A stretch of 64,000 nt of DNA, from NCBI GenBank assembly GCA_035573955.1, contig DATLZO010000019.1:161-64160 (forward strand), written 5' to 3'. Under the pieces are notes generated by a model. That model ran no database searches and was not told where the DNA came from. It was given only the letters and a program-made list of their open reading frames with translations. The stretch's first letter is position 1. Each line of letters starts with the position of its first letter. A program made the position numbers and the translations under genes. Shown here in pieces: positions 16,667 to 54,084 of the stretch. Origin of the DNA: Minisyncoccota bacterium. Its GTDB lineage: Bacteria; Patescibacteriota; Minisyncoccia; UBA6257; GWB1-50-10.

Positions 16667-17367
16667 AGGAAATAATGTCGGAACTGAAGAAACTTGAGGA
16701 GAAGATCGGCGTCGATTTTAGGAACAAGGCGCTTTTGCTCGAGGCGGTCACGCACCGTTCATATCTCAACGAAAACCCAGGTGTGAGAACGGGTAACAAC
16801 GAGCGATTGGAATATCTCGGCGACGCGGTTCTCGAACTTGTTGTGACGGAGAGACTCTTCAATGAATTCCCGGAGAGTCAGGAAGGTGAACTCACTCTTA
16901 TCCGCGCCGCGCTTGTGAATTATGTTATGCTCGCGAGAGTAGCGAGAGAAATAGGTCTCGAGGGTTATATACTTCTCTCGCGCGGCGAGGCGAAGGATTT
17001 AGGTAAAGCAAGGGAGGTTATCCTTGCAAACGCTATCGAGGCGGTGATTGGTGCGATACACCTCGACAAGGGATACGAAGCTGCAAAGACCTTCATCGAG
17101 AGAAACATCATTCGTCACCTTAAGGAGGTGACGGAGAACGGCGCCTACCGTGACCCGAAGAGCAAGCTCCAGGAACTCATCCAGGAAAAAATGAAGTCCA
17201 CACCGACCTATAGTGTCTTGGAAGAAAAAGGGCCCGACCACGCCAGGGAATTTATCGTTGGTGTCTATTTCGGCGGTGAGCTCCAAGCGAAGGGTAGCGG
17301 TAGTTCCAAGCAGGAAGCGGAGAATAAGGCGGCGGAAGAGGCTCTGAAGGTGTTCGGACAGAAATGA
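16663..17367 (+). CDS. rnc: ribonuclease III
   Basis: NERLEYLGDAVLELVVTERLF signature; C-terminal dsRBD. Confidence 0.9.
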   Translation: MKEIMSELKKLEEKIGVDFRNKALLLEAVTHRSYLNENPGVRTGNNERLEYLGDAVLELVVTERLFNEFPESQEGELTLIRAALVNYVMLARVAREIGLEGYILLSRGEAKDLGKAREVILANAIEAVIGAIHLDKGYEAAKTFIERNIIRHLKEVTENGAYRDPKSKLQELIQEKMKSTPTYSVLEEKGPDHAREFIVGVYFGGELQAKGSGSSKQEAENKAAEEALKVFGQK

Positions 17368-19544
17368 CCAATTTCCTTAAAAGGCTCGAATTGCATGGTT
17401 TCAAATCTTTCGCCGGAAAGACGGTTCTGGAGTTCCCAGCGCGGATAGTAGGCGTTGTTGGTCCCAACGGTTCTGGCAAATCTAATGTTATTGACGCACT
17501 GCGGTGGGTTTTGGGCGAACGCGAAGCCAAGCATCTACGCGGTGAGACTCTCGACAACCTTATCTTCGCTGGCAGTCAGAAGAAAGCGGCTGTAGGGCTT
17601 GCCCGTGTCACCATCTATTTTGACAACAAAGACAGGGATTTTCCTGTCGAAGCCGAGGAGGTTGCCGTTTCCCGGAAAATAGATCGGTCGGGTGTGAGTG
17701 AGTTCTCGGTGAACGATGTGGAAGTGAAACTGAAGGAGCTAATCCCGATGCTTGCCCGGGCGCGTCTCGGGTCGCGGGGACTCACCATTGTCGGTCAGGG
17801 CGAGAGCGACATATTTGTCCGTTCCACGCCCGAAGAGCGACGAGAGATGATCGAAGAAATTCTGGGTTTGCGCGAATTTCGCCTGAAAAAGCACGGCTGC
17901 GAACGGCGGCTCGAGGCGAGCGAGGTGAACATGGAAAAGGTAAAAGCAATGATTGACGAGCTCACGCCCCATCTTCGTCTCCTTCGAAGGCAGAAATCTC
18001 GCTTCGAGAAAAGAAATGAAATCGCCGAAAATTTGAAGAAAACCGAAAACGAGTATTTCGGACACCACTACTCTGAAATGAAATCCGCCCTTGAGGAAAT
18101 TAACAGGCCAATCCGCGAGGCGGGCGAAAGCCAGAAGTTGAAGGAAGAAGAGATAAGAAAGATTAGTGAGGACTTGAAGAAGATAAATCTCCGAAGTAAA
18201 AGTTCCCGACGGACGAGGGAACTGCAGAGCGAGATCATCAATCTTATGAACCGCAAGTTCGAGATAGAGAAGGAGACCGGACGGCTCGAGGCGAAAATAG
18301 AGTTTCAGAAATCGGTGCCTGGCCGCAGCACATCTTTCGAGGAGATGGAGAACGCTGTCAAGGAGTTTACGGAGAGCGTCGAAGAGATGCTCGGTTTGGA
18401 TGATATCGAGCGCATCAAGGAGAAGCTGAGGAGTTGGCTTGTCCGTTTTCAGGAAATGTTCCGCAGGAAGACCGGCGAATCTTCGGCGGAACTCGTGTCA
18501 GATCTTGATGATCTCAGGAATAAGCTTGCGGAGATAGACGCCGCAATCAGGGAAAAACGGGCCGAGGAGGAGAAGTTTACAGAGGAACAGGATGCCTGGA
18601 ACGAGGAGTTTCGGCGTAAAGTGGAGGAATTGGAAACTCGGAAGAACGAATTACGCGATCTGGAGCACAGGATCCAAGGGTATCTTCTCGACCGCCAGCG
18701 TCTGGAGCTTCGGATGGGCGAGTTGGAAAGGGAATGGGTTTCGTACGGTCGGGAAGCAGCGGAACTCGGAAAATTACCGCACCCAGGAGCGCAAGTGGAT
18801 TCGGCTGCGTTGGAAAAGAAAATGGTTCGTCTACGGGGCGAACTTGCTGCTATCGGCGAGATAGACGAGAGCATGATGAAAGAGGCGCTCGAGAGCGAGG
18901 AGCGTTACGAATTCCTCACAAAGGAGTACAAGGATCTAGAGCACGCCATCCGCGACCTTAAAGGACTCATCAAGGATTTAGATAATAAAATTCACACAAG
19001 TTTTAAATCATCCTTCCGTCAGATAAACGACGAGTTCAACAATTATTTCCGCCTGATGTTCCACGGAGGCAAGGCAAAACTGAAGCTTGAAGTTTACAAA
19101 CCAAGGGTTCAGAAATCTGCGGAAAGTGTGGAAGATGCAGAAGCTGGGGGAGAGTTGGTCGAAACCGAACCGAAAGCAGCTGAGTCGAGTGAGGAAGAGC
19201 ACGAACTTAGGGCCGGGATAGAAATAGATCTTGCTGTGCCGCGGAAAGGTATTAAGGGCATCGATATGCTCTCCGGAGGCGAGCGGAGCCTCGTTTCCAT
19301 GGCAGCTCTATTCGCCTTGATTGCCGTCTCGCCACCGCCTTTCCTTGTTCTCGATGAAATCGACGCGGCCTTGGACGAGGAGAACGCTCGCCGCTTCGCC
19401 GAGCTCATCAAGGAATTCTCAAAGAAGACACAGTTCGTTCTCGTTACCCATAACCGCTCGACGATGGAGGCGGCGGACGTCCTTTACGGAGTCACCATGG
19501 GTGAAGACGGAATTTCCAAAGTTCTTTCGTTAAAACTGGAATAA
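17364..19544 (+). CDS. smc: SMC-family chromosome segregation ATPase, short hinge-less form
   Basis: SMC N-terminus LELHGFKSFAGKTVLEFPARIVGVVGPNGSGKSNVIDALRWVLGE, signature LSGGERSL, Walker B LVLDEIDAALD; only 726 aa with continuous coiled coil. Confidence 0.78.
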   Translation: MTNFLKRLELHGFKSFAGKTVLEFPARIVGVVGPNGSGKSNVIDALRWVLGEREAKHLRGETLDNLIFAGSQKKAAVGLARVTIYFDNKDRDFPVEAEEVAVSRKIDRSGVSEFSVNDVEVKLKELIPMLARARLGSRGLTIVGQGESDIFVRSTPEERREMIEEILGLREFRLKKHGCERRLEASEVNMEKVKAMIDELTPHLRLLRRQKSRFEKRNEIAENLKKTENEYFGHHYSEMKSALEEINRPIREAGESQKLKEEEIRKISEDLKKINLRSKSSRRTRELQSEIINLMNRKFEIEKETGRLEAKIEFQKSVPGRSTSFEEMENAVKEFTESVEEMLGLDDIERIKEKLRSWLVRFQEMFRRKTGESSAELVSDLDDLRNKLAEIDAAIREKRAEEEKFTEEQDAWNEEFRRKVEELETRKNELRDLEHRIQGYLLDRQRLELRMGELEREWVSYGREAAELGKLPHPGAQVDSAALEKKMVRLRGELAAIGEIDESMMKEALESEERYEFLTKEYKDLEHAIRDLKGLIKDLDNKIHTSFKSSFRQINDEFNNYFRLMFHGGKAKLKLEVYKPRVQKSAESVEDAEAGGELVETEPKAAESSEEEHELRAGIEIDLAVPRKGIKGIDMLSGGERSLVSMAALFALIAVSPPPFLVLDEIDAALDEENARRFAELIKEFSKKTQFVLVTHNRSTMEAADVLYGVTMGEDGISKVLSLKLE

Positions 19545-19600: not shown

Positions 19601-19645
19601 ATTGACGTTTGATTTTAGGATGTCGGAAGTCCTAATATTGAAAGT
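19601..19645 (+). promoter_or_regulatory. conserved upstream element of Cys-rich paralog 1 (ATTGACGT...GGATGTCGGAAGTCC...AATATTGAAAG-ATG)
   Basis: aligns motif by motif with the region upstream of paralog 2 (51438-51496, minus strand). Confidence 0.35.
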
Positions 19646-21397
19646 ATGAACTCGGAAACAAAAACCTGCCAGAATTGTAAGCAATCTTTTAAGATTGAGG
19701 CGGACGACTTTAATTTTTACGAAAAAATTAATGTTCCGCCGCCGACGTGGTGTCCCAACTGCCGGGCGCAGCGGAGATTGATTTTCCGCAACGAGCGAAC
19801 CCTATATAGAAGAAAATGCGACCTCTGCGGTAAAGATATCATTTCAATTTTCCATAAAGATAGCCCGCAGACCGTTTACTGCCAGCCATGTTGGTGGTCG
19901 GACAAGTGGGATCCGACTTCATACAGTCGCGATTACGATTTCTCTCGTCCGTTTTTCGAACAGTTCCTCGAGTTATACCGGAAAGTACCGTTGCCGGCAC
20001 TCTCCACTTTTTATACGACTTTAGTGAACAGTGAATATGTCAATCAAGCCGGATATATGAAGAATTGCTACCTCCTCTTTGATTCGGACTACGACGAGAA
20101 CTGCGCTTATGGAACGGAGGTTGAGCACAGTCATGATTGTTTTGATTGCCTGATGATAAACGGCTGTAGCCTTGCTTATGAGTGTGTTAACTGCCAGAAG
20201 TGTTACGAGATTTTTTACTCTATGGATTGCGATAACTCACATCACGTCTGGTTTTCCCGAGATCTTATCGGCTGCTCTTACTGTTTCGGTTGCACGAATT
20301 TGAGAAACAAGCAGTATCATATTTTCAACAAGCCTTACTCGAAGGAAGAGTATGAGAGAGAAATAAAGCGGCTAAGTCCCAATTCCAAAGAGAAAGTTCT
20401 GGAGATGAAAGAAAAAGTCGAAGAGTTCTTTCTTACTTTCCCACGTAAGTACATTCGCGGTCGGCAAAACACCAACGTTTCGGGCGATTATATCCATCAT
20501 TCCAAGGAAGTGTTCAATTCTTACATCGTTACCGAAGCACAGAATTGCAAGTATTGCATGTGGTTAATCGTGAAACCCATAAAAGACTGCTGGGATTACG
20601 CGGGGTTTGGCAACAACGCCCAGAATATGTATGAAAACATGAATTGCGGCCAAGATGTAAGCGATATTAGTTTTTCGTCGTTTGTATTTATATCTTCTTC
20701 TCGCATTAAATACTCGATATTTTGTTATTCTTCTCAAGACCTATTCGGCTGTGTCGGTCTGCGTCGAAAATCTTACTACATCTTCAATAAAGAATACTCT
20801 AAAGAAGACTATGAAAAGCTTGTTCCTCAAATAATTGAGCATATGAATAAAATGCCCTATACCGACGGTAAGGGGAGGGTTTACAAGTACGGAGAATTCT
20901 TCCCGCCTGATCTTTCACCTTTCGCTTATAACGAAACGACGGCGATAGAGTATTTTCCGCTGACCGAAACGGAGGTTCTAGAGAATGGTTACAGTTGGAA
21001 GGAAACTGAGAAACGCGACTACAAAGTAACAACTGTTGGACCAGAACTCGAGTGGGTCATAGGCTGCGAGCACGGCGGCAAGTGCAATCATAATTGTACG
21101 ACTGCCTTTAAATTGATACCCCAAGAACTGCAATTTTATAAGAGGATGAATATTCCTTTGCCTCAACTTTGTCATAACTGCCGGCATCACGAACGATTGG
21201 GGCAGAGAAATATTTTCAAACTCTCCCATCGGCGGTGTCAGTGCGCAGGTGCAAGTTCGGAGAATAAAGTCTACCAGAACAACCATTCCCACTTCCACGG
21301 TGCCGAACATTGCCCCAACGAATTTGAAACTTCTTATTCCCCTGACCGGAAAGAAATTGTCTACTGCGAACAGTGCTACAACACCGAAGTCGCATAG
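19646..21397 (+). CDS. large cysteine-rich protein, paralog 1 (583 aa), with duplicated terminal zinc-ribbon-like modules
   Basis: N- and C-terminal modules share C..C...F.I...FY.K.N.P.P..C.NCR..RRL.FRN...LY.R.C..C; centre is full of CxxC pairs with an internal repeat LRNKQYHIFNK / LRRKSYYIFNK. Confidence 0.7.
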   Translation: MNSETKTCQNCKQSFKIEADDFNFYEKINVPPPTWCPNCRAQRRLIFRNERTLYRRKCDLCGKDIISIFHKDSPQTVYCQPCWWSDKWDPTSYSRDYDFSRPFFEQFLELYRKVPLPALSTFYTTLVNSEYVNQAGYMKNCYLLFDSDYDENCAYGTEVEHSHDCFDCLMINGCSLAYECVNCQKCYEIFYSMDCDNSHHVWFSRDLIGCSYCFGCTNLRNKQYHIFNKPYSKEEYEREIKRLSPNSKEKVLEMKEKVEEFFLTFPRKYIRGRQNTNVSGDYIHHSKEVFNSYIVTEAQNCKYCMWLIVKPIKDCWDYAGFGNNAQNMYENMNCGQDVSDISFSSFVFISSSRIKYSIFCYSSQDLFGCVGLRRKSYYIFNKEYSKEDYEKLVPQIIEHMNKMPYTDGKGRVYKYGEFFPPDLSPFAYNETTAIEYFPLTETEVLENGYSWKETEKRDYKVTTVGPELEWVIGCEHGGKCNHNCTTAFKLIPQELQFYKRMNIPLPQLCHNCRHHERLGQRNIFKLSHRRCQCAGASSENKVYQNNHSHFHGAEHCPNEFETSYSPDRKEIVYCEQCYNTEVA

Positions 21398-24499: not shown

Positions 24500-24586
24500 G
24501 CGTCGGTGGCAGAGTGGTCAATTGCACTTGACTGTAAATCAAGCGCCCTTCGGGCTACGTAGGTTCGAATCCTACCCGGCGCACCA
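24500..24586 (+). tRNA. tRNA-Tyr (anticodon GTA)
   Basis: manual cloverleaf: acceptor GCGTCGG/CCGGCGC, anticodon loop CTGTAAA, long variable arm, encoded CCA. Confidence 0.85.
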
Positions 24587-24762
24587 GACATGAAAAGTCA
24601 AAGAGTTTTGGTTTGTCTCGCTTCGCTCGACGGCCATTTTGTATTTGGATTTTCGGGGCAAAAACGAATTGGCGATTTTGAAGGAAGAAAAGAAAATTTC
24701 TTAATTATTGATTTTCTGGGATTTTGACTAAAAAACAGAAGAAATGTTGATTTTTGTTGGGA

Positions 24763-24791
24763 TTGACATAAGGCTTTAAATATGCTAGATT
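24763..24791 (+). promoter_or_regulatory. putative promoter TTGACA-17-TAGATT for the GC-rich gene pair
   Basis: read directly. Confidence 0.45.
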
Positions 24792-24863
24792 TTCATTAGT
24801 AAACAATCGAGCTATTGTGGCTTGATTGCAGCACATTTCAACAAGCGAGGAGGTTGCAAAACC

Positions 24864-25148
24864 ATGATGACGATGGCGGTCCGCTATCCGTTCCTGTTTC
24901 TGTTCAGGATCACCGGTCAACTCACTCCGCTCTTCGAGCGCGCGAACTACACGGCGATCGGTTTCTCCGGTCATGTTTCGATGCTCGACGAGGACATTGC
25001 AAAGGAGCGCAAGCTCAAGCCGCTCAACCGCTTCGAGCGATGGCTCTTGAAGCCCATCATCGAGGACGAACAGACGCGGCGTCGCGAGTGCTTCTGGCAA
25101 GCCATCATCGAGGTCACAGGAAAAGGCCCGGACACCGACTGGTCGTGA
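24864..25148 (+). CDS. hypothetical protein (94 aa), GC-rich, SD-bearing
   Basis: GAGGAGG upstream of ATGATGACGATG; local GC clearly above the flanks; long antisense ORFs reflect that GC. Confidence 0.5.
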   Translation: MMTMAVRYPFLFLFRITGQLTPLFERANYTAIGFSGHVSMLDEDIAKERKLKPLNRFERWLLKPIIEDEQTRRRECFWQAIIEVTGKGPDTDWS

Positions 25149-25181
25149 ACGAAATCCAACCAACCACGAAGGAGGCGCTGC

Positions 25182-25430
25182 ATGGCACAGACTGCAACGA
25201 CAGCGACGAAGAACAAGTTCGGGAGCAATCAGTTCCCGATCCACTACGAGGGTGGCTACCTGCGGGTTTACACGAACCCGTCAGGTGAGCTCTTCGTAGA
25301 GGACACCCGTTCAGGTGTCTCGATGCGGATCAATCCGTCTCATCCTGGTGGTCTCCAGTTCACCACCGATGGCCGGGTCGAGCCCATCCGAGTCACCAAC
25401 ACGATCGGGTGGTGTGTCGAACGTCGCTAG
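25182..25430 (+). CDS. hypothetical protein (82 aa), GC-rich, SD-bearing
   Basis: AAGGAGG-7 nt-ATG; followed by a terminator. Confidence 0.55.
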   Translation: MAQTATTATKNKFGSNQFPIHYEGGYLRVYTNPSGELFVEDTRSGVSMRINPSHPGGLQFTTDGRVEPIRVTNTIGWCVERR

Positions 25431-25454
25431 ACTAACGAGCTTCGCGCTCGGTCA

Positions 25455-25497
25455 GAACCCACCATGTCACAAGACCTCTGGTGGGTTTCTTATTTTT
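25455..25497 (+). terminator. rho-independent terminator
   Basis: AACCCACCA...TGGTGGGTT stem followed by TCTTATTTTT. Confidence 0.55.
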
Positions 25498-25756
25498 GAT
25501 TTATTCCATTATTTTTATATAATGCATTTGTATTCGCTTCGCGAATTCTGAATTAGTTGCCGCCAAAGAAAAATTGGAGATTGTTAGATCTCGCGGCGAA
25601 GCCGCACCAAAATTCGCAGGTGGTTCCTCGCCGCCGCAGGCGGCGAAAACGGTTCACGCTATTTCAAGAATAGAGCACATCGCCACCAGCACGCTCTGCG
25701 TGAGGTGGCACCACTCGGAATAAATGATATCCTACGGTATAATTTATTCCTCGCTT

Positions 25757-25831
25757 GCCACCTTAGCTCAGCGGTAGAGCAACTGTTTTGTAAACAGTAG
25801 GTCCTCGGTTCAAATCCGAGAGGTGGCTCCA
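25757..25831 (+). tRNA. tRNA-Thr (anticodon TGT)
   Basis: manual fold: acceptor GCCACCT/AGGTGGC, anticodon loop TTTGTAA, T-arm CTCGG-TTCAAAT-CCGAG, CCA encoded; TGgTATAAT-like -10 about 15 nt upstream. Confidence 0.85.
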
Positions 25832-25839
25832 AAAGCGAC

Positions 25840-25912
25840 GCCAGAGTAGCTCAGTCGGCAGAGCACATCCATGGTAAGGATGGGGTCGGGAGTTCGATTC
25901 TCCCCTCTGGCT
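25840..25912 (+). tRNA. tRNA-Thr (anticodon GGT)
   Basis: acceptor GCCAGAG/CTCTGGC, anticodon loop ATGGTAA, T-arm GGGAG-TTCGATT-CTCCC; CCA not encoded. Confidence 0.85.
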
Positions 25913-25952
25913 CAAAATTGATTTTTAGTCGCGGATTATCTATCCTATTATC

Positions 25953-26123
25953 GTGGCTCAATCAAAACTCAAGGAAAATCTAGTTAGGCTGAAGTGCACG
26001 GTTTGCAACCGGGTGAATTATTTCACGCGCAAGAACAAGAAACAGGTGGAGAGGAAATTGGAATACCGTAAATTCTGTACGTGGTGTAGGAAACATCAGT
26101 TGCATAAGGAAGCGAAAAAATAA
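25953..26123 (+). CDS. rpmG: 50S ribosomal protein L33 (GTG start; absent from the ORF track)
   Basis: translation VAQSKLKENLVRLKCTVCNRVNYFTRKNKKQVERKLEYRKFCTWCRKHQLHKEAKK; L33 zinc ribbon CxxC...CxxC. Confidence 0.75.
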   Translation: MAQSKLKENLVRLKCTVCNRVNYFTRKNKKQVERKLEYRKFCTWCRKHQLHKEAKK

Positions 26124-26197
26124 GGGGTCATAGTTCAATGGCAGAACGTCGGTCTCCAAAACCGATAATGGGGGTTCAACTCCCTCTGACCCCGCCA
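26124..26197 (+). tRNA. tRNA-Trp (anticodon CCA)
   Basis: acceptor GGGGTCA/TGACCCC, anticodon loop CTCCAAA, CCA encoded; classic rpmG/tRNA-Trp neighbourhood. Confidence 0.85.
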
Positions 26198-28912: not shown

Positions 28913-29570
28913 TTAAAGTCCGACGGATTTCATCCTCGAGCGCCACTTGATAATTTCAAATTGGGCAAGAAGATGAACTTTTTTACAAGTTCAGGGTCTT
29001 CTAGTTAAAGTAATCGAGCAGAGATAAATTACTCAACAGAGTAAGTTACTCAAATTAAGGGTGGATGGTGGATGCCTAGACACCGAACGGCGAAGAAGGA
29101 CGTGGCGTAGCTGCGATAAGTCTCGGGGAGGTGCGTAGCAACCTTTGATCCGGGAATGTCCGAATGGGGAAACCTGGTAGAGCAAACCTCTATCACTTCA
29201 ACGCAAGTTGAAGAGCGTACCCAGGGAACTGAAACATCTAAGTACCTGGAGGAGCAAAGAACAATAGTTTATTCCGCAAGTAGCGGCGAGCGAAAACGGA
29301 AGAGCCTAAACTGAGCTTTCGACGCAAGTCGGACGCTCAGGGTTGAAAGAGTGAGAACGTCTTTCGAGCTTGAAAGCTTTGAGCTTGAAAGGAGAAGTTA
29401 CAAATCCATTGGTTAGTTGAATCCGCTGGAAAGCGGAGCCATAGTGCGTGATAGCCGCGTAAACGAAAACCAGTGGACTTCTCAGTTTTTATTTCTTAAG
29501 TACCGCGAGGCCAACTAACCTTGTGGGAATCCGGGAGTACTGTCTCCTAAGGCTAAATACGTTCGGCGAT

Positions 29571-29607
<37 letters not shown>

Positions 29608-29672
29608 CAGCCCGGTTAGGGCGGTGAAATAGTACCTGAAACCATCCACTTACAAGGAACAGGAGCTTTATC

Positions 29673-29836
29673 GCTATCGCTCAAAGTTCCTAAATTCTAA
29701 GCACGAAATCCAAAATTCTAAATAAATTCTAAACTCCAATGTTCAAGATTCAAAACGTTTTGAACATTTGGATTTTAGTGATTGGAGTTTGTTTAGGATT
29801 TAGAAATTAGAAATTAGGATTTGGAAACTTCGAGCG
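29673..29836 (+). other. AT-rich hairpin insertion (IVS-like) at the 23S helix-25 site
   Basis: ~160 nt imperfect palindrome of TTCTAAA/TTTAGAA-type repeats between GGAGC and the conserved GAGTGACTGTGTGCC. Confidence 0.6.
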
Positions 29837-30526
29837 GTAGCGAGGAGTGACTGTGTGCCTATTGAAGAATGAGCCAACGAGTTTACGTACGCTGCAAAGT
29901 CTAAGCCCCCTCGGGGGTGGAGGCGCAGCGAAAGCGAGTCTTAATAGGGCGAATTTAATCAGTAACACAAGCCTTTTAAGAGGATTGTGTTACCGGTTAA
30001 TAAGCAACGTGCGTAAGACCCGAAACCAGACGAGCTTGCCCTGGCCAGGATGAACTCCCGCGAAAGCGGGAGGGAGGTCCGCACCGGTGAGTCGTGCAAC
30101 GCTCTCGGATGAGCTGGGGTAAGGAGTGAAAAGCTAATCGAGTTTGGTAATAGCTGGTTCTCTCCGAAATAGTTTTCGGACTAGCCTCATATGTTTCCTT
30201 TTGGAGGTAGAGCACTGGAAGATGCGAACAGGGCGCAAGCTCGTCGCATCTATCAAACTCCGAATGCCAAAGGGTAAAAGTATGGGAGTCAGACTGTGGG
30301 GGCTAAGCTCCATGGTCGCGAGGGGAAGAGCCCAGATCGCCGTCTAAGGTCCCAAAGTTCGTACTAAGTGTCAAAGGTAGTTCGTGTCCACAAACAGATA
30401 GGAGGTTGGCTTAGAGGTAGCCATCCTTTAAAGAGTGTGTAACAACTCACTATTCGAGGACGCGGGCGCCAAAAATTTACCGGGGCTCAAGTACGACACC
30501 GAAGACGCGGGCCGTTGCGGAGCAAC

Positions 30527-30645
30527 GGAAATCCTAAATCCAAAATCCTAATTTCTAAACAAATCCCAAATCTCAAAATCCAAAACTTTTTTGAGTTTGG
30601 AATATTTGAATTTGTTTAGGATTTAGAGATTAGAATTTAGAGTTT
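30527..30645 (+). other. AT-rich hairpin insertion (IVS-like) at the 23S helix-45 site, homologous to the helix-25 insertion
   Basis: flanked by GGAAA/TTTCC; shares TTTGTTTAGGATTTAGA(A/G)ATTAGAA with the 29673-29836 insertion. Confidence 0.6.
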
Positions 30646-32048
30646 CCGTCGCTTCGCGACGGCGGTAGGAGAGCATTCCTTGTGCTGCGAAGTCCGATCC
30701 GTGAGGGCGGATGGAGCGCAAGGAAGAGAGAATGTTGGCATGAGTAATCAGCAAAGCGCGTGAAAAACGCGCTCCCCGCAAATCCAAGGTTTCCTCCGCA
30801 ACGCAAATCGACGGAGGGTTAGGCGGCCCTAAGGCGATGGCGAAAGCCGCAGCCGAAGGAGTGCCGGTTAATATTCCGGCCCACCATGCATTTTCGATGG
30901 GGTGACGGAACGCAGTAAGTTCGGTGCCTTAATGGTTTGGCATCCTTGACCGAGAGTGAATTCCAGGGAAATCCGGAATTCTGTCTTCAATGACGAACTT
31001 CAGGGTAGAGGCGAGGCGAGGTTTTTACCTTGCCAAGCGGACCGAGCGCGTTTCCTAGAAAAACCTCTAAGGTTAAAGTGCATAGTTCCGTACCGTAAAC
31101 CGCCACTGGTGGATGAGGCGAGTAGCCTAAGGGGAACGAGTGATTTCTCGCTAAGGAACTCGGCAAAAAAGCTAGGCGTAACTTCGGGATAAGCCTTGCC
31201 TGCCGCAAGGCAGGCCGCAGCTAAAGTTTCTCTGGCGACTGTTTACCAAAAACACAGCTCCCTGCGAACTCGCAAGAGGATGTATAGGGGGTGACACCTG
31301 ACCGATGCGAGAAGGTTAACGGCGGGGACGTTGCGCAGCAATGTGCAAGGTTCACTGCCCGAAGCCCTCGTCAATGTCAGCGGTAACTATAACCGTTCTA
31401 AGGTAGCGCAATTCCTTTCCGGGTAAGTTCCGGAGCGCACGAAAGGTGTAACGACTGGAGAACTGTCTCAGCGAGAAGCTCGATGAAAATGCGATACCCG
31501 TGAAGACGCGGGTTACCGGCAGCAAGACGAAAAGACCCCGGAAGCTTTACTGCAGTTTGGTATTGTTATTAACGTTTGGATGCGTAGCGTAGTGGTGAGC
31601 CTTCGAAGCCGGGATTTCGGTTCCGGTGGAGGCGACAATGAAACAGCCATCTTTCAAGTGTTAATATCTAACCTCTAGGGCCAAAAACCTAGAGGGACAG
31701 TGCCTGACGGGCAGTTTAAATGGGGCATTTTCCTCCTAAAAAGTAACGGAGGAGTCTATTAAGGTCAGCTTGGCGCGGATGGAAATCGCGCCGGACGTGC
31801 AAAGGCATAAGCTGGCTTGACTGCAAGGCTGACAAGCCGCGCAGGCGCGAAAGCGGAGCTTAGCGACCCGACCATTCTTTATAGAAAGATGGGAGACAAC
31901 GGCTAAAAGTTACTCCGGGGATAACAGGCTAGTCTGGTCCGAGAGTCCCTATCGACGACCAGGTTCGGCACCTCGATGTCGGCTCATCACATCCCGGGGC
32001 TGGAGAAGGTCCCAAGGGTTTGGCTGTTCGCCAATTAAAGTGATACGT

Positions 32049-32089
<41 letters not shown>

Positions 32090-32127
32090 TGTTGTCGGCG
32101 TTAATGCTTGAGGGAAGTCGTCCCTAG

Positions 32128-32892
32128 TAAACGACAAATTGCTACTTCACGAAGTAATTCGTGATGACAAAGCGGCTAATAACGGTGGAATCTTAATATT
32201 TGATTATCACCATCGGTCTTGGTGATAATTTACTTGAGGACCAAGAGATGTTAAGATAATACCGTGGGAAGTCGGTCTAACATTCACTATGCGTACATTG
32301 CGGGTTTCCTCGATGGTGACGGAAGCCTCATGTTGCAGGTGAAGAAACGCAAAGAAGGGAAATTGAAACGGCGTTTCATGTTCACGATTTGTTTTTATTA
32401 AGACAGTCGTCATGAACGTCCGCTTTTCTGGATTCGTAGAGTGCTCGGCATTGGTTATATTTCCCGTCGGAATGACGGTATAACCGAGCTGCGCATCAAC
32501 GGTTACAAACAAGCTGCGAGAATATTAAGGGAACTACTGCCGTTTCTAAAATTCAAGAAGCGGCAGGCGGAGGCAATATACAGCGCGGCAAAGCTTTTAG
32601 CGCAAAAGGCGCGAAAAAGATTAACGCGGCAGGAATTGCAGCGGCTTGTGAACTGGATCCTTGTAGTTCAAAAAGAAAACTACGTTACCAGAAAAAAGAA
32701 AACGAAAGCTGATTTCTTGAAGATGTTAGATTTGACCCCGTAACGACTTGTTCCGGATGGCAAGTCCGGACGGAGTTGGAAAATGCGAAGCTATCATTTT
32801 TCAGCTAATACGCCGCCTCCAAGCCCCGGTTTTGAGAAAACTGGAGCTGGATGAAGATATAGTCTACGCACGTAGTGATACGTGGTTACGTG
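32128..32892 (+). mobile_element. group I intron in 23S domain VI, splitting CCUAGU^ACGAGAGGACC at the sarcin-ricin loop
   Basis: exon sequences rejoin to the conserved SRL; intron ends in G; GATATAGTC P7-like core; contains the LAGLIDADG ORF. Confidence 0.7.
32264..32743 (+). pseudogene. intron-encoded single-motif LAGLIDADG homing endonuclease (I-CreI-like) with an in-frame TAA at 32399-32401
   Basis: YIAGFLDGDGS motif; GIGYI...LPFLKFKKRQAEA aligns to I-CreI; the stop falls where I-CreI has Gln (CAA to TAA). Confidence 0.65.
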
Positions 32893-33049: not shown

Positions 33050-33290
33050 ATTGGCCAGAAAGATTTTTTATATCTGGCTAGGCGCGAGGAGTGATGTGTA
33101 GTCGAAGACTACATGAGCGACGAGCAACAACGCCAGAAGAAAAAAGATTCTGGCCCGTAGGGAAGCTCAAAATTAAGCGATCTCTGCGTTGCTCCTCCTC
33201 AATGTGGTTTTCGACCACACTTTCGTCGTCGCATCTTGAGCTCATCATAATTTTGAGCTTCCAATACATCGTGGCATTTGTGCAGAGGGC
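33050..33290 (+). other. ~230-nt expansion insertion near the 23S 3' end (helix ~98 region)
   Basis: between CATCTAAGCGCGAAGCCTCTCCCAAGATTAGG and GTGGAAGACTACCACGTTGATAGGCC, where E. coli has ~50 nt; several local hairpins. Confidence 0.45.
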
Positions 33291-33459
33291 GCCGGATTCG
33301 TGGAAGACTACCACGTTGATAGGCCATAGGTGTAAGCGCGGCAACGCGTTTAGCCGAGTGGTACTAATAAATCCGAATTCTCGATATCTTTAGCTTGAGG
33401 ACCCCGGACTTGTCAAAAAGCTCATCTTTAGTCCACTGATCGAGCACCAAGGTTTTTGT

Positions 33460-33574
33460 TTGCTGGTGTTTCACTCGCACGTGCTCCACCTCTTCCCATT
33501 CCGAACAGAGAAGTGAAAGCGTGCGAGCCTGATGATACTGCGCTTCGCGCGTGGGACAGTAGGGTATGCCAGCA
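33460..33574 (+). rRNA. 5S rRNA
   Basis: CCATTCCGAACAGAGAAGTGAAAGCGTGC...GGGACAGTAGGGTATGCCAGCA; ~80 nt after the 23S. Confidence 0.85.
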
Positions 33575-33611
33575 TACAAAAGCCCTGGTGCTTTTTGTTT
33601 GGAGCGGTTCC

Positions 33612-38789: not shown

Positions 38790-38833
38790 TTTCCGGGCTT
38801 GCTTTTTACCAAAAAATGCGCTTATATTGTTTT

Positions 38834-39193
38834 CGGTAAGTCAAGCGATAGCTCCGATTCCGCAAGGTTTTGGAGAGGAAAGTCCGGACACCCTCCCGGC
38901 CGTGCGCCGGGATAAAAATGTAGCGGATAACGTCCGTCGTCCGCAAGGATAGAGGTGCGAGCAGTGACGTCCCGAGCCGAAAGGCGAGGGAGGACCTAAT
39001 CTCAAGCTAATCGGTCCAATCCCGCGATAGAGATAGAAAAGCGGGAGTGAAACGGCTAAATCCTTACAGGGTGCAAGGCTGTGCCCCGGGAGACCGGGGA
39101 ATGCCGCTCGAGTCCGGGAGTAATCCCGGTCCTAGATGAATTATCGCTAAGGTGTATAATCACCCGAAACAGAATCCGGCTTACGACTTACCG
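38834..39193 (+). ncRNA. rnpB: RNase P RNA (bacterial type)
   Basis: GAGGAAAGTCCGGAC (P4 5' strand) and ACAGAATCCGGCTTAC (P4 3' strand); P1 pairing CGGTAAGTC/GACTTACCG; terminator follows. Confidence 0.85.
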
Positions 39194-39195
39194 CA

Positions 39196-39227
39196 GAAAC
39201 CCGCCGCAAGGCGGGTTTCTGTTATTT
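39196..39227 (+). terminator. rho-independent terminator of rnpB
   Basis: GAAACCCGCC-GCAA-GGCGGGTTTC then TGTTATTT. Confidence 0.6.
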
Positions 39228-48600: not shown

Positions 48601-49665
48601 TAGGAGTTTTTTAGCGATTTTCTCTGCCGCTTCATGTTTTGAGAAACTTTTAGCGGCTTTTGCCATTGCTTTTGCGATTTTCCCGTTTTTGAGGATTTTT
48701 TCAATTTCGGTTTTCATAGTTTGCCAGTTTAGGTCGCTTTCTTCCACCACCACGGCCGCTCCGGTGGCAGCGTATTCATAGGCATTGGCTTTTTGATGAT
48801 TGCTTGCCGCACCTTCGAGCGGAATTAATATGGAAGGTTTCCCAAAAGCGGCGATTTCAAAAATGGCGCTTGCGCCGGCGCGGGAAATAACGAGGTTGGT
48901 TTTTGACAGCGCTCGCTTTAATTCTGCGGCGTCTAAAAATTTCACTGGGTGGTAGTTTTTGGAAGCACTATAATTAATTATAGCGCCGACATTATTTTCA
49001 CCCGTTTGATGAAGAATGCTCCCCAATTTTAATAATTCTTTAAGGTGCGCGGAGATAAAAGAGTTAATGCAGGCTGCTCCTTGGGAGCCGCCAAGCACCA
49101 AAATAGACACTCTAACATTCTGCAAAATACTGGAATGTTGTGGTTTTGTTGAATCTTTCAGAAGATCGGCGCGAATGGGGTTGCCTATGAGTTCGGTTTT
49201 GTTTTTCGGGAAGTATTTTTCGGCGTTTTTCCAAGCGATGAAGATTTTCTTTGCAAAAATCGCCGAGAGACGGTTCGTGAGTCCCGGTACGGCGTCGGAA
49301 TCATGAATCACAACCGGCACGAAAAAACACCGGGCGGCCAAGACTACCGGGAGCGCCCCCGGTCCGCCTTTGGAAAAGACTAAATCTGGCTGGATGTAGA
49401 AAATATGAGCCAGTGATTGAAAAATACTCCAGAGAAACTTAAAAATGTCGGTAAAGTTCCGCCAGTCAAAATAGCGGCGGAGCTTGCTTGAGACAATCGA
49501 CAGTGTTTCGATGTTTCTTTTTGTAAACTCGACGTTCAAAGGGTGATTCGGGCCAATGTAGTGAAGTTGAACTTCACTAGATTGTTTTTGGATTTCTTCG
49601 GCTACCGCCACAAGCGGAAAAATATGTCCGCCCGTTCCCCCGCCTGTTAGTACAATCTTTTTCAT
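48577..49665 (-). CDS. murG: undecaprenyldiphospho-muramoylpentapeptide beta-N-acetylglucosaminyltransferase
   Basis: KIVLTGGGTGGHIFPLVAVAEE GT28 N-terminus. Confidence 0.9.
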   Translation of the reverse strand: MKKIVLTGGGTGGHIFPLVAVAEEIQKQSSEVQLHYIGPNHPLNVEFTKRNIETLSIVSSKLRRYFDWRNFTDIFKFLWSIFQSLAHIFYIQPDLVFSKGGPGALPVVLAARCFFVPVVIHDSDAVPGLTNRLSAIFAKKIFIAWKNAEKYFPKNKTELIGNPIRADLLKDSTKPQHSSILQNVRVSILVLGGSQGAACINSFISAHLKELLKLGSILHQTGENNVGAIINYSASKNYHPVKFLDAAELKRALSKTNLVISRAGASAIFEIAAFGKPSILIPLEGAASNHQKANAYEYAATGAAVVVEESDLNWQTMKTEIEKILKNGKIAKAMAKAAKSFSKHEAAEKIAKKLLNFGGLTS

Positions 49666-51437
49666 ACTACTTCGGCGTTATAACATAGCTCGCAGTACAC
49701 AATCTCCGGTCTGTCGGGGGCGTAGGAGGTTTCAAATTCGTTGGGGCACCTCTCTTCTGGGTGATGGCTGTGTTTTGAGGAATTTTGATAGACTTTATAG
49801 TCACACATACACTCACGGTGCCAGAGTTTTATAGGGGTACGTAACGCCTGCCTTTCTTCATTTCTACAAGCAGGACAAAGTATTGGAATAGGTATATTCA
49901 TTTGCCGGTAGAGTTGAAGTTCTTGGGGGACTATTTTAAATGCGATGGTACAATTATGCCCGCACTTTCCTTTATGTTTACACTCAATAACTTCGCGTAA
50001 AATATCATCACTCACTTCTTTAATGGATTGTGGAATTTCGTCAGGATGTTTTGTCGGTTGATACTCTCTTTTTTTCTCTCCTGCCCACTGGCACCCTGAG
50101 AGTGTAAACTCACCTTCCTTTGAAGGAAAATAAAACTGAGTCATAGCTTCGTTATACGCAAATGGTGAAAACTCTGGCGGGAAAAATTCGCCATATTTAT
50201 AAAAGTTACCCGCAGAGTCAAAATAGGGGTTTTCACTCATTTCTTTGCTTATTTTATTCTTAAGCTGTAAGTAGGTTTCTTTGTCATACTGCTTATTCAA
50301 AATACAGTACTGTTTTTTTCTTAGACCTATACATCCGAAAAGGTCTTGGCTACCGCGGCAGTAATCGCAGTATTGCACACGAGCGCAGTTCTCAAAAGAG
50401 TTAGTGGAAAAGTAAATGTTTGAATCAAGGTATCCCACATTAACCCCCTCATAGAGTAAAGCTGCTTCTTTATCCCCCACTCCAAAAACATCATGAGAGT
50501 CTTTGGCGCGAGCCATTTGAACGCCGTATTTCACATCTTCACAGCTTTCGGCGTTAAAACAGCGGACTGCGTTTTTGCATTGAAACAAATTGTTGCCGGA
50601 GGAATTGAGGCATTTTACAATGTTGGCGTGCTTGTGTAGCACGCTTTTCCGCATGTGCAAGTATTCTGATAAGAGCCGAGCTAAATTTTCTCGGTCATAG
50701 GTTATTTTACTAAGCTCTCGACGATATTCATCTTCGTTAAGCTGTTTGTTGCGGAAAATGAATTTTTTATTGCGTAAATTGCTACTCATAAAACAATCTG
50801 AAGAATTGCGGCAATCGTACAAAAAAGCACTATCTAAACAATCTTTGCAGTCAGATATGAACTTGCAATTAACGCAGTGCTCCGAGTCAATGGCGTGATA
50901 AACTTTCTCACAGTTCATGACTGTTGTGGAGTCAAACACGTCCCGACCGCCGTAAACTGTTTTGGAATAAGCAACGTTATCAGAGCTTATGGTTGTTGGC
51001 GACAGATAAATATTTTTTGAAAACCAAGTATAATCTGAGTAAGATGAATTCTTATTTTGATATGCCTCTAAATTTGGTCTGGGTACGGCATCGGAAAGTT
51101 CTTTCCACTGAACAAAGAATCCTTTGCGAGAATCATAGTCCAAACCGTACTGGAGCGGATCCCATTTATCAGACCACCAACAATCGTTGCAATATATCGG
51201 AAAACTAACCTTATCTGAATAGTGAGAGATACCTTCCTTATTGCATAGTCCGCATTTATATCGGTACATATTGAATTCATTGCGAAATAACATTCTCCTT
51301 TTCATACGGCACTCCGGGCACCACGTCGGCGCCGGAACATCTATCTTCCTGTAAAAATCAAAATCCTCCGGTTCGATTGTGAACTGGTTCTTGCAATTCT
51401 GGCAAATTTTAGTTTCGGATTGCATGTTTCTTTTCAA
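49662..51437 (-). CDS. large cysteine-rich protein, paralog 2 (591 aa), located between ftsW and murG
   Basis: same architecture as 19646-21397; termini conserved (CQNCK..F.IE..DF.FY.KI.VP.PTWCP.CR and CPNEFETSY.PDR.EIVYCE.CYN.EV). Confidence 0.7.
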   Translation of the reverse strand: MKRNMQSETKICQNCKNQFTIEPEDFDFYRKIDVPAPTWCPECRMKRRMLFRNEFNMYRYKCGLCNKEGISHYSDKVSFPIYCNDCWWSDKWDPLQYGLDYDSRKGFFVQWKELSDAVPRPNLEAYQNKNSSYSDYTWFSKNIYLSPTTISSDNVAYSKTVYGGRDVFDSTTVMNCEKVYHAIDSEHCVNCKFISDCKDCLDSAFLYDCRNSSDCFMSSNLRNKKFIFRNKQLNEDEYRRELSKITYDRENLARLLSEYLHMRKSVLHKHANIVKCLNSSGNNLFQCKNAVRCFNAESCEDVKYGVQMARAKDSHDVFGVGDKEAALLYEGVNVGYLDSNIYFSTNSFENCARVQYCDYCRGSQDLFGCIGLRKKQYCILNKQYDKETYLQLKNKISKEMSENPYFDSAGNFYKYGEFFPPEFSPFAYNEAMTQFYFPSKEGEFTLSGCQWAGEKKREYQPTKHPDEIPQSIKEVSDDILREVIECKHKGKCGHNCTIAFKIVPQELQLYRQMNIPIPILCPACRNEERQALRTPIKLWHRECMCDYKVYQNSSKHSHHPEERCPNEFETSYAPDRPEIVYCELCYNAEVV

Positions 51438-51496
51438 TTTTGCGAGGCTCGACCTCCATGCGAATTGACGTCAATGTTTGGGAGGTTAAACCTCAA
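51438..51496 (-). promoter_or_regulatory. conserved upstream element of paralog 2 containing the perfect palindrome ATTGACGTCAAT and GGAGGTCGAGCCTC
   Basis: aligns with the region upstream of paralog 1 (ATTGACGT...GGATGTCGGAAGTCC...ATTGAAAG). Confidence 0.4.
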
Positions 51497-52620: not shown

Positions 52621-54084
52621 TTACCCGGCGCGCAGAACGCTTCCGCTTGCGACTGGTTTGAAATTGCCGTCCATCAGTGCGACTTTACCGTTTATGACAA
52701 CGTCGCGAGGTTTGAAGTCGCGTAGAACGACAAGATCGGCAAAGTAGTTTTCTTTAATCAGGCCGCGGTTCTTTATCCCGAATTTTTCAGCCGGACCGCC
52801 CGTTGCTTTTTGGACTGCTTTCTCAAGCGGTATACCAATACCACTCGCAGCCCGGAGAAAGTTCGTGAAAGCTTCATACTTTCCCGTTGCTCCAGAAGAG
52901 ACAAATGATGACGGAGAAGCAGCGAATTCGGCGGCCATTTTATCATCGACGTTCCGCAAGAGAACCACGGCGCGCAGGTGAGAAAGACGCATCAGACGGA
53001 GAATAGCTTCTTCTTTTCTTAGCTCGTGGCTTATTGCGAAATCGTCCAAGGTCCGACCGTTTAAAAAACCGAGCGGCGGTGGAGCGGAAAAGATGATTAT
53101 TTCGTCCACGGACACTTTTTTCAAGTGATCAAGAATCCCCTTCTCTAGGCGCGACTCTCTCAAGGAATCGTTCATTGTATCGAGATTTCCGCGTTTCACG
53201 GTAGGCGGCAGAAGCTGGTAGATGGGTATTTTAATGACGCCCTCAATATTGCAGTCGAAATGGACATGGGTTCCTGCAGTTTCTGCTTCTATCGTTTCTT
53301 TGGCTCGGACGTAATTATTCCGGAACCCTAGGACCGGCTCGAGATGGCTTATTTCCACCTTTGCTTCCGTTTCCTTGCCGAGTTTTATTGTTTCTTCCAC
53401 AGCCGGTATTAGTCCTTCGGTGTAATCGCGCAAATGGATGGAAACTACGCGATTTTTTGCAGCGGCGAGCCGGCAGAGTTCCGAGATCTCCTTAAACGGC
53501 GTCATTTTGGCGTGAGCGTAATCGAGACCGAAAGAAATACCGAAAGCTCCTTGAACCAGCGATTCCTCGACAATCTTTATCATTGCCGCTGTTTCCCGGT
53601 CTGTAAGATCACGCGCATCCTCGCCGAGTAAGCCCCGCCTGACGGTGCCGTGGCCGACAAGTGTTCCGAAATTAACACCCAAACTGCGCCTTTCAATGGT
53701 TTTCAGAAAATCGGAGATTCCACGCCAGCCTACGTTTATTTTCGATATGTCGCCCCACTTCCGGAGTGAGAGCATGGAAATTCCGAAGACGGGGAAAAGT
53801 GAGGAGCCACAGTTACCGCCGAGAACCGTAGTAATTCCTGCCATGACCAATTTTTCGCCGGTGGGGTCGTTTAGTATTTCCAGGCGGTGGTCGAAATCGG
53901 AATTAATATCGATGAAACCAGGCACAACAATGCCTCCGGCGGCGTCAAGGAGCACATCAGCTTCTTTTTTAGGGAACGAGCCGAGCCTGACGATTCGGCC
54001 GCGTCTCACAAGAATATCAGCTTTCTTCGGCGGTTCGCCGGAGCCGTCGTAGACAAGCCCGTTTTTGACGAGAACGGTCGGCAT
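52621..54084 (-). CDS. amidohydrolase family protein (N-acyl-D-amino-acid deacylase-like)
   Basis: VKNGLVYDGSG...ADILV..GRI...DAAGGIVVPGFIDINSDFDH metal-dependent amidohydrolase N-terminus. Confidence 0.72.
   Translation of the reverse strand: MPTVLVKNGLVYDGSGEPPKKADILVRRGRIVRLGSFPKKEADVLLDAAGGIVVPGFIDINSDFDHRLEILNDPTGEKLVMAGITTVLGGNCGSSLFPVFGISMLSLRKWGDISKINVGWRGISDFLKTIERRSLGVNFGTLVGHGTVRRGLLGEDARDLTDRETAAMIKIVEESLVQGAFGISFGLDYAHAKMTPFKEISELCRLAAAKNRVVSIHLRDYTEGLIPAVEETIKLGKETEAKVEISHLEPVLGFRNNYVRAKETIEAETAGTHVHFDCNIEGVIKIPIYQLLPPTVKRGNLDTMNDSLRESRLEKGILDHLKKVSVDEIIIFSAPPPLGFLNGRTLDDFAISHELRKEEAILRLMRLSHLRAVVLLRNVDDKMAAEFAASPSSFVSSGATGKYEAFTNFLRAASGIGIPLEKAVQKATGGPAEKFGIKNRGLIKENYFADLVVLRDFKPRDVVINGKVALMDGNFKPVASGSVLRAG

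Follow-up and report, generated by a model that had tools for sequence, protein, structure and literature searches.

A Paceibacteria protein family with terminal zinc modules and two beta-solenoids, and its possible link to a VirD4/TraD-like ATPase

The window analyzed here is a stretch of 64,000 nucleotides from a Minisyncoccota bacterium (contig DATLZO010000019.1, positions 161 to 64,160 of the forward strand). It contains two related genes, c1 and c2, which encode cysteine-rich members of a protein family of the Paceibacteria. The members are soluble proteins of about 580-600 aa without a recognizable catalytic domain. A fixed architecture was found for them: a zinc module, solenoid A, a cap with a helix, solenoid B, again a cap with a helix, an aromatic segment and a copy of the zinc module. 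This structural part of our model is near-certain. The paralogs may be adaptors or cargo of a VirD4/TraD-like ATPase, the genes of which adjoin family genes in other Paceibacteria. For the model as a whole we claim a tentative plausibility that stays somewhat below an even chance.

Gene c1 (19646..21397, + strand) codes for 583 aa from an ATG start, as given by the open reading frame (ORF) listing and an exact database match, NCBI HXF44284.1 (locus tag VNK70_02350), which is annotated as 'hypothetical protein'. Gene c2 (49662..51437, - strand) codes for 591 aa from a TTG start. In its NCBI record HXF44314.1 (VNK70_02535) the N-terminus is cut off and only 493 aa are given; the start of this record lies about 95 codons too late and leaves out the conserved N-terminal zinc module, and the long c2 ORF is covered to 99% by homologs. 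The true start of c2 is likely the ATG at 51425 (587 aa), because the alignment with c1 begins at codon 5 of c2 and the gene call P0387 (587 aa) agrees. Both proteins could be aligned across their full length with 42% identity (BLASTP, E 2e-156). A preliminary description of the window, made from the sequence by eye, had judged the two ORFs to be homologs of 40-50% identity with the same architecture, in agreement with this result. It had also noted the lack of a signal peptide: neither protein has a transmembrane segment or a hydrophobic N-terminus (maximum Kyte-Doolittle 19-residue mean 0.99), and both are probably located in the cytoplasm. AlphaFold2 (AF2) models of the two copies, built from alignments of 112 and 91 sequences, reached a predicted local distance difference test (pLDDT) score of 87.7 and a predicted template modeling (pTM) score of 0.89 for c1, and 86.6 and 0.87 for c2.

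The N-terminal zinc module of c1 (residues 1-100; 19646..19945, +) consists of two fingers. Finger 1 (nt 19667-19762, +; C8,C11/C36,C39) has the spacing CxxC-x24-CxxC. In both AF2 models C8/C11 lie between the strands E4-7 and E14-17, and C36/C39 start the helix H37-45. Because a hairpin knuckle is combined with a second Cys pair opening a helix, the layout is of the treble-clef type. An Arg-rich helix follows C39 in c1. Finger 2 (nt 19817-19891, +; C58,C61/C79,C82) shows the exact CxxC-x17-CxxC spacing, which is also present in c2 (C62,C65,C83,C86 in the 591-aa numbering). The two fingers of the N-terminal module of c2 (51126..51425, -) hold 8/8 Cys.

The C-terminal module of c1 (residues 470-583; 21053..21394, +) is homologous to the N-terminal one; that of c2 (49665..50000, -) was located by alignment to c1 and by BLASTP between the N- and C-terminal modules. 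Candidate ligands in c1 are C474, H476, C480, C484, C509, C512, H514, C531, C533, H549, H551, C556, C574 and C577. This module keeps only C-x17-CxxC (C556...C574,C577) and differs by His and by CxC/CxxxC variants. Within one protein, the N- and C-terminal modules matched with E 1e-13 in c1 and 4e-12 in c2 (BLASTP). For the family sub-alignments hhalign gave Prob 99.2% (E 9e-20), with controls at Prob <1%. Thus, the duplication of a zinc-ribbon-like module at both ends, first seen by eye, is significant in formal alignments. In 231 homologs the terminal Cys/His are conserved to 90-100%, and C8, C11, C36 and C39 of finger 1 to 99-100%.

As a domain type this module is not new: the families PF13451 (zf_Tbcl, 'probable treble clef domain') and PF23477 (zf_Tbcl_2)/TIGR04272 match it above threshold in homologs. 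A Pfam scan of 80 members yielded matches to these two finger families only. PF13451 was matched at E<=0.01 in 30 of the 80 members, at the positions of finger 1, and reached 27.3 bits in the homolog P0029. The score for c2 was 15.2 bits (E 0.021), below the gathering cut-off of 24 bits, and no match was obtained in the Pfam scan of c1. The CxxC-x17-CxxC models TIGR04272 and PF23477 were matched at E<=0.01 in 22/80 members at the positions of finger 2; c1 and c2 themselves gave no match at the cut-offs of 36 and 27 bits, respectively. The homolog P0044 passes the latter cut-off with 34.3 bits. PF23477 also matches the last ~35 residues, within the C-terminal module, in homologs. For small CxxC-x17-CxxC proteins of M. 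mazei the binding of zinc was reported by inductively coupled plasma mass spectrometry (PMC12704099). Stand-alone finger copies were found in phage proteins (BFVD, prob 1.0 over 38-66 columns).

A distant member, P0370 (731 aa), carries an N-terminal extension that looks GNAT acetyltransferase-like, by eye only. Most Cys of its two treble-clef fingers are missing, and the surrounding motif F.I...D..FY.K...P.P..CP..R..RR is kept. The protein is a variant without zinc or else the product of a fused gene call.

The basic character of the ends gives room for a different function. According to this explanation each of the two basic treble-clef modules would attach to DNA or RNA, with the double solenoid serving as a rigid spacer. 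The paralogs would then be bridging or regulatory proteins that act without the ATPase: transcription factors, nucleoid proteins or factors of RNA handling specific to the candidate phyla radiation (CPR). An Arg-rich helix follows each second zinc knuckle (CRxxRRxxFRNER, CRHYxRLxxRN), the terminal modules have isoelectric points (pI) of ~8.1-8.4, and one homolog is named 'Zn ribbon nucleic-acid-binding protein' by its source. The genes nusB, rnc, smc, rpsP, trmD and that of a KH-protein, which surround the family gene in the window, fit as well. On the other hand, no match to any DNA/RNA-binding family was obtained, the C-terminal module of c2 has a pI of 6.3, and a length of ~600 aa with two beta-solenoids is atypical of a bacterial regulator. 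We regard binding of nucleic acids as the main function to be rather unlikely. It would be compatible with the adaptor model, as ATPases of the VirD4/TraD type couple to and translocate DNA.

The center of the proteins is a pair of tight beta-solenoids with 12-residue coils, the inward positions of which are often Cys, and not a string of zinc knuckles. This follows from the period of 3 and 12 residues in the Cys positions, from the replacement of central Cys by Ser, Val, Ile or Ala in homologs, and from their variable number (8 to 27 per protein across members). Solenoid A of c1 (residues ~127-226; 20024..20323, +) comprises ~8 coils of 12 residues and ends with the cap 'CTNLRNKQYHIFNKPYSKEEYE' plus a helix. 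Solenoid B (residues ~266-380; 20441..20785, +) is a duplicate of A with looser periodicity and the cap 'CVGLRRKSYYIFNKEYSKEDYE'. For c2, solenoid A (50754..51053, -) was assigned by alignment to c1 and from model strands every 3 residues, and solenoid B (50298..50639, -) by alignment to c1 and from the AF2 model. In solenoid A each third residue points inward and is Cys, Ser or small. An aromatic stripe is conserved in it, and a polar face varies. The rows of 12 read aromatic - x - small - x - x - C/S - x - x - C/S - x - N/D - C. All Cys-bearing columns at residues 129-225 are multiples of 3, and the Fourier peak of Cys/Ser occupancy lies at 3.00 residues with a power of 244 vs 3.6 in a control segment.

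The duplication of the solenoid covers ~110 residues (c1 ~125-240 vs ~275-395; BLASTP E 4e-11), and solenoids A and B were aligned by hhalign with Prob 99.8% (E 2e-29). In the preliminary description the repeat had been taken as a tandem one. The repeat itself was confirmed, and the 22 residues quoted for it are the tail of the ~110-residue duplication, but ~150 residues separate the two copies, so that the arrangement is not a tandem one.

About eight central CxxC pairs had been counted and read as multiple zinc sites. We found six CxxC motifs in c1, including CVNCQKC and CSYCFGC as two overlapping CxxCxxC runs, and three in c2, where such runs are absent; most of them are not conserved in the family. 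Conserved central Cys are only C210, C213, C369 and, less so, C360, and the remainder is conserved to 15-70%. Among the Cys of the CxxCxxC runs only C210 and C213 exceed 90%, followed by C216 (66%), C186 (60%), C183 (44%) and C180 (17%). The last coil of solenoid A (207/210/213/216) holds at least three Cys in 93% of members, with three in c1 and two in c2. Four Cys in any other window of this solenoid (i, i+3, i+6, i+9) occur in <=6% of members.

A multi-zinc cytoplasmic protein, in which the central CxxC pairs form about eight more zinc or Fe-S sites, is thus very improbable. The Cys content of c1 (6%), its six central CxxC motifs and the Cys-rich last coil of solenoid A speak for it; the poor conservation of most central Cys, their substitution, their changing number and the strict period of 3/12 speak against it. 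Central zinc or Fe-S sites were rejected as a feature of the family; a single intra-coil metal site, in the coil that closes solenoid A, is a possible exception. A 4Fe-4S ferredoxin-type or radical enzyme, for which a conserved CxxCxxCxxxC(P) or CxxxCxxC motif would be expected, was considered as well: the CxxCxxC runs are variably conserved, and no Fer4 or radical-SAM match was obtained in the Pfam and NCBIfam scans of c1 and c2 or in the Pfam scan of 80 members. As judged from the Cys and His patterns, zinc sites are likely in the terminal modules only.

Behind solenoid B lies an aromatic and Pro-rich segment (c1 residues ~381-455; 20786..21010, +), which belongs to the most conserved parts of the protein. 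Its family consensus is ...YxYGEFFPxELSPFxYNETxAQEYFPL..., with invariant G416, P420 and W451, and its column entropy is the lowest outside the fingers. In general, conservation is highest at the ends and at residues 361-440 and lowest along the solenoid stretches. Within the coils the columns with aromatic residues vary little (H 1.0-2.1), and the polar columns 4, 5, 7 and 8 vary most (H 2.6-2.9). These variable columns may form one exposed face of the solenoid.

The pair is not a local peculiarity of this genome but belongs to a family of which thousands of clusters were found. The searches with c1 and c2 yielded >8000 and >6000 clusters at 90% identity, respectively, and an exhaustive HMMER scan yielded 3889 clusters at 50% identity (E<=1e-3). 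Named matches belong to Jorgensen-, Nomura-, Staskawicz-, Giovannoni-, Lipton-, Sungii- and Portnoybacteria (Paceibacteria/Parcubacteria). The family is essentially specific to Paceibacteria (Patescibacteria/CPR), very large, and multi-copy in many genomes. Its members are mostly named 'hypothetical protein' or 'zinc-binding domain-containing protein', besides the one nucleic-acid-binding name given above. Searches of Pfam, NCBIfam, PADLOC, PHROGs and, by sequence and profile, PDB gave no whole-protein match for c1 or c2, which agrees with the earlier statement that no characterized family can be assigned. There were 0 matches in PADLOC, and in PHROGs only matches of E>=0.001 to families of unknown function. 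No description of the family was found in the literature searched. It was absent from the IMG/VR contigs and INPHARED phage records searched, and a phage or mobile origin was rejected for these collections.

The two genes of the window are two ancient, anciently diverged subtypes, because their closer relatives lie in other genomes: the closest relative of c1 there shows 64% identity, vs 42% between c1 and c2. The closest ortholog of c2, P0123 (about 68-69% identity), is gene 2 of an array that comprises five or more co-oriented paralogs of ~590 aa and in which a sixth called gene runs off the end of the locus. Array counts were taken from 82 loci of ~12 kb and neighbor counts from 84 family-anchored loci. 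Two to six co-oriented copies are held by 46/82 loci. Compared with the other copies of its own locus, a copy reaches a best identity of 44.6% at the median and of 54.5% at most; compared with copies elsewhere, the median of the best identity is 57.2%. For 96% of copies a closer relative exists in a different genome. In 33 of the 39 multi-copy loci every member belongs to a different cluster. Orthogroup counts by identity clustering are not robust, because top hits are overrepresented in the sample. A recent tandem duplication and a diversification driven by an arms race were both rejected, as no same-locus pair exceeds 54.5% identity. Hence, of the earlier proposal that two diverged copies reflect functional diversification and not a dead duplicate, maintenance and diversification stand, and a local duplication does not.

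Tandem arrays of 5-6 co-oriented paralogs with 40-46% identity were seen in the locus L001 (4113-13767) and in L018, L026, L028 and L053. The array of L001 is interrupted only by a CutA1 gene, and a VirD4-like ATPase gene precedes it.

In the window itself the genes are dispersed. The order around c1 is nusB - rnc - smc(short) - c1 - rpsP - KH - trmD (neighbors assigned by Pfam), and that around c2, on the - strand, is ftsW - c2 - murG. The stop codon of c2 and the start codon of murG overlap at 49660-49668 (GTATGA). Translational coupling within an ftsW-c2-murG operon is therefore suggested, in which c2 would be co-translated with the dcw (division and cell wall) genes. Just 5' of the ATG an A/T-rich 'ATTGAAA(G/A)' stretch is present in c1 (19620-19648) and c2 (51425-51450), and a short GC-rich inverted repeat lies ~15-30 nt further upstream in both; this likeness may be due to chance. 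Conservation of an ftsW-X-murG context, named as a check in the preliminary description, was not observed in general: ftsW is nearby in 4/84 loci, one of which (L038) repeats the order with two family genes between ftsW and murG. The ortholog closest to c2 lacks this context and is located in its array beside a VirD4-like ATPase gene. As trmD is near a family gene in 2/84 loci, a conserved rpsP/trmD context was rejected, too.

The only strongly recurrent neighbor was an ATPase with matches to TrwB_AAD_bind, DUF87/HerA, T4SS-DNA_transf and TraG-D_C. Its frequent companions are a membrane paralog that lacks the Walker motifs (DUF8128) and a small membrane protein. For the ATPase and its companions, 40 genes were counted in 24/84 family-anchored loci. 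Matches of the ATPase to TraD, VirD4-like CD1115 and CedD were all far below cut-off; the only relatives found in PDB are TrwB and, weakly, HerA. A long form of 600-730 aa carries a C-terminal CxxC-x17-CxxC finger (PF23477, E 8.5e-11; TIGR04272, 44.8 bits at a cut-off of 36), and the hidden Markov model of the family's finger 2 matches five long forms. The reciprocal test was carried out with 80 metagenome loci anchored on the ATPase. Family genes were present within 6 kb in 42/54 loci with an ATPase at least 69% identical to the reference, vs 2/17 loci with more distant ATPases (Fisher p 1.6e-6). A published survey of Patescibacteria reported 5,713 VirD4-like type IV coupling proteins (T4CPs) in 2,918 genomes, only 148 of them near virB4, and considered exaptation possible (PMC12102498). 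The word 'zinc' occurs 0 times in this paper, and no zinc-containing protein is mentioned there.

Two gene orders recurred: secF - sigma70_r4/HARE-HTH - DUF8128 - TM (transmembrane protein) - ATPase - family gene(s), and dnaK - ATPase(long) - family gene(s) (0-3) - ATPase(short) - dnaJ. Two ATPase genes between dnaK and dnaJ were seen in L096, L097, L103, L108, L119 and L122, as well as in L024, L051 and L071. The long ATPase carries the zinc finger and the short one does not, and 0-3 family genes lie between them. L119 has no family gene between dnaK and dnaJ; L122 has two short ORFs there, which are possible remnants. CutA1 (divalent-ion tolerance) is a recurrent neighbor in 8/84 family-anchored loci and in 11 of the 56 ATPase-anchored loci for which the genes were grouped by clustering.

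This neighborhood would also suit a redox- or metal-buffering holdase that works with DnaK/DnaJ, similar to Hsp33 or the zinc center of DnaJ, with Cys-lined solenoids and fingers sensing oxidation or metal stress. The position of family genes between dnaK and dnaJ, the recurrence of CutA1 and the high Cys content are in line with such a role. No homology to Hsp33 or to the CxxCxGxG domain of DnaJ was found, the flanking dnaK and dnaJ persist without family genes (L119), and the many old specialized paralogs and the finger shared with the ATPase would be left unexplained. The likelihood of a holdase is accordingly judged to be very slight.

The paralogs could likewise be secreted effectors, which the VirD4-like ATPase passes to a type IV secretion system (T4SS) for delivery into a host and which DnaK/DnaJ keep competent for transport. 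Family genes adjoin T4CP-like ATPases in both search directions, a block of ATPase and family genes lies between dnaK and dnaJ, and multi-copy arrays are typical of effector repertoires. Furthermore, T4SS genes matter for the epibiotic growth of a cultured CPR bacterium (PMC12102498). In contrast to fast-evolving effectors, the paralogs are ancient and under purifying selection, without recent duplicates, and have a fixed length and conserved ends. The AF2 models show that the protein ends right after a zinc finger without a disordered C-terminal signal, and a zinc-stabilized solenoid would be hard to unfold. Nearly all T4CP genes are far from virB4, and the T4CP is not essential in Southlakia (PMC12102498); no family member was found on viral contigs. 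We consider secreted cargo to be quite improbable.

In the model we prefer, the protein would be a rigid, non-enzymatic scaffold or adaptor, with zinc holding its ends together. The constant parts, that is the zinc modules at both ends, the stripe of aromatic residues and the segment 381-455, may dock to a partner common to all paralogs, and the variable polar face of the solenoids may set the specificity of each paralog. The shared partner would most probably be the orphan VirD4/TraD-like ATPase of the FtsK/HerA superfamily, because its genes are coupled to family genes in other Paceibacteria and the long form shares the CxxC-x17-CxxC finger on its C-terminal tail. This identification of the partner remains doubtful. 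The paralogs would then be specialized adaptors for that translocase, or its cargo. In the genome studied here the two copies are dispersed in housekeeping operons (smc-c1-rpsP and ftsW-c2-murG). The specific version, in which the family is the client set of an exapted, Paceibacteria-specific VirD4/TraD-like translocase and is recognized via the shared zinc-finger type, is unlikely.

Several points weigh against the adaptor model. The link between the family and the ATPase is one of gene neighborhood only, and synteny that related Paceibacteria have inherited may account for part of it. An ascertainment bias is present as well, because the ATPase queries had been chosen from genes next to family members. 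About 70% of the family-anchored loci have no ATPase within ~5 kb, and none was detected in the window by tblastn and profile search. Some dnaK-ATPase-ATPase-dnaJ loci have no family gene (L119). The number of zinc sites and the solvent exposure of the variable columns are derived by sequence logic, and the term 'non-enzymatic' stands for the lack of a profile match and of an obvious catalytic motif, which is absence of evidence.

CPR genomes are tiny, and yet many Paceibacteria have retained between two and over six full-length paralogs of old origin. An important lineage-specific function is implied, which is undescribed in databases. If the version with a client set of an exapted translocase is true, the dnaK-dnaJ and secF neighborhoods would host an undescribed intracellular or host-directed delivery system, with ~1% of genes. 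The orphan VirD4-like ATPases now have a candidate client family, and both gene sets can be approached experimentally. If the link to the ATPase fails, the family is still a large, confidently modeled new domain combination that merits a Pfam entry. New are its defined architecture, the corrected view of the cysteines as part of a solenoid core and a concrete hypothesis for the partner.

Further features of the window were recorded. The SMC-family gene upstream of c1 (17364-19544, +) encodes 726 aa with an SMC_N match at residues 4-718. Typical bacterial SMC proteins have ~1,200 aa, which implies a shortened coiled coil for this one. An amidohydrolase-family gene (52621-54084, -; 487 aa) is located directly upstream of ftsW in the division and cell-wall cluster. 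Genes for 23S rRNA (29048-32115, +) and 5S rRNA (33461-33575, +) are separated by a spacer of ~1.3 kb with only small ORFs (32441-32743 and 33091-33393), and no 16S rRNA gene is present in the window. A group of tRNA genes (Tyr-GTA, Thr-TGT, Thr-GGT, Trp-CCA) occupies 24500-26197 (+), and the RNase P RNA (bacterial class A, 112.9 bits) lies at 38833-39198 (+).

The finger domains and the beta-solenoid principle are of known kinds, and the family, its architecture and the coupling to the ATPase match nothing characterized that we found. With the T4SS coupling proteins VirD4/TraD/TrwB and with CedD, an archaeal ATPase of DNA import (Ced), the recurrent neighbor has the ATPase domain matches and the upstream membrane proteins in common. 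It differs from T4CP systems in that its scores are far below the curated cut-offs and, according to the literature, its gene is not near virB4. The loci showed neither a relaxase nor any further component of a T4SS, and the family protein is unlike all known substrates and accessory proteins of such systems. Hexapeptide-repeat left-handed beta-helix acyltransferases and gamma-carbonic anhydrases have coils of 18 residues instead of 12. Neither the signature [LIV]-G-x2-[STAV]-x nor a Hexapep Pfam match was detected in the family, and the Foldseek probabilities were <=0.15.

TmAFP, the antifreeze protein of Tenebrio molitor (PDB 1EZG), has, like the family, coils of 12 residues in which each third residue faces inward and is Cys, Ser or Ala. 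The disulfide pairs of TmAFP are i/i+6. The Cys pattern of c1 and c2 is mainly i/i+3, unlike that of TmAFP, and the family has no TCT or TCTxSxxCxxAx ice-binding motif, no disulfide per coil and is not of the secreted type. With identities of 6-15% to 1EZG, the ryegrass ice-binding protein 3ULT and the spruce budworm antifreeze protein 1M8N, the likeness may be read as a structural analogy only. Unlike these tight beta-solenoid antifreeze proteins, the family is predicted to be cytoplasmic and combines two solenoids with zinc modules. PF13451 and PF23477/TIGR04272 have the same finger layouts as the terminal modules and match homologs above the Pfam cut-offs. These are short domains for which no function is described. 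In c1 and c2, unlike in the short Tbcl domains, two different fingers are fused in a module of ~100 residues, and this module occurs twice and flanks a body of ~370 residues without a Pfam model.

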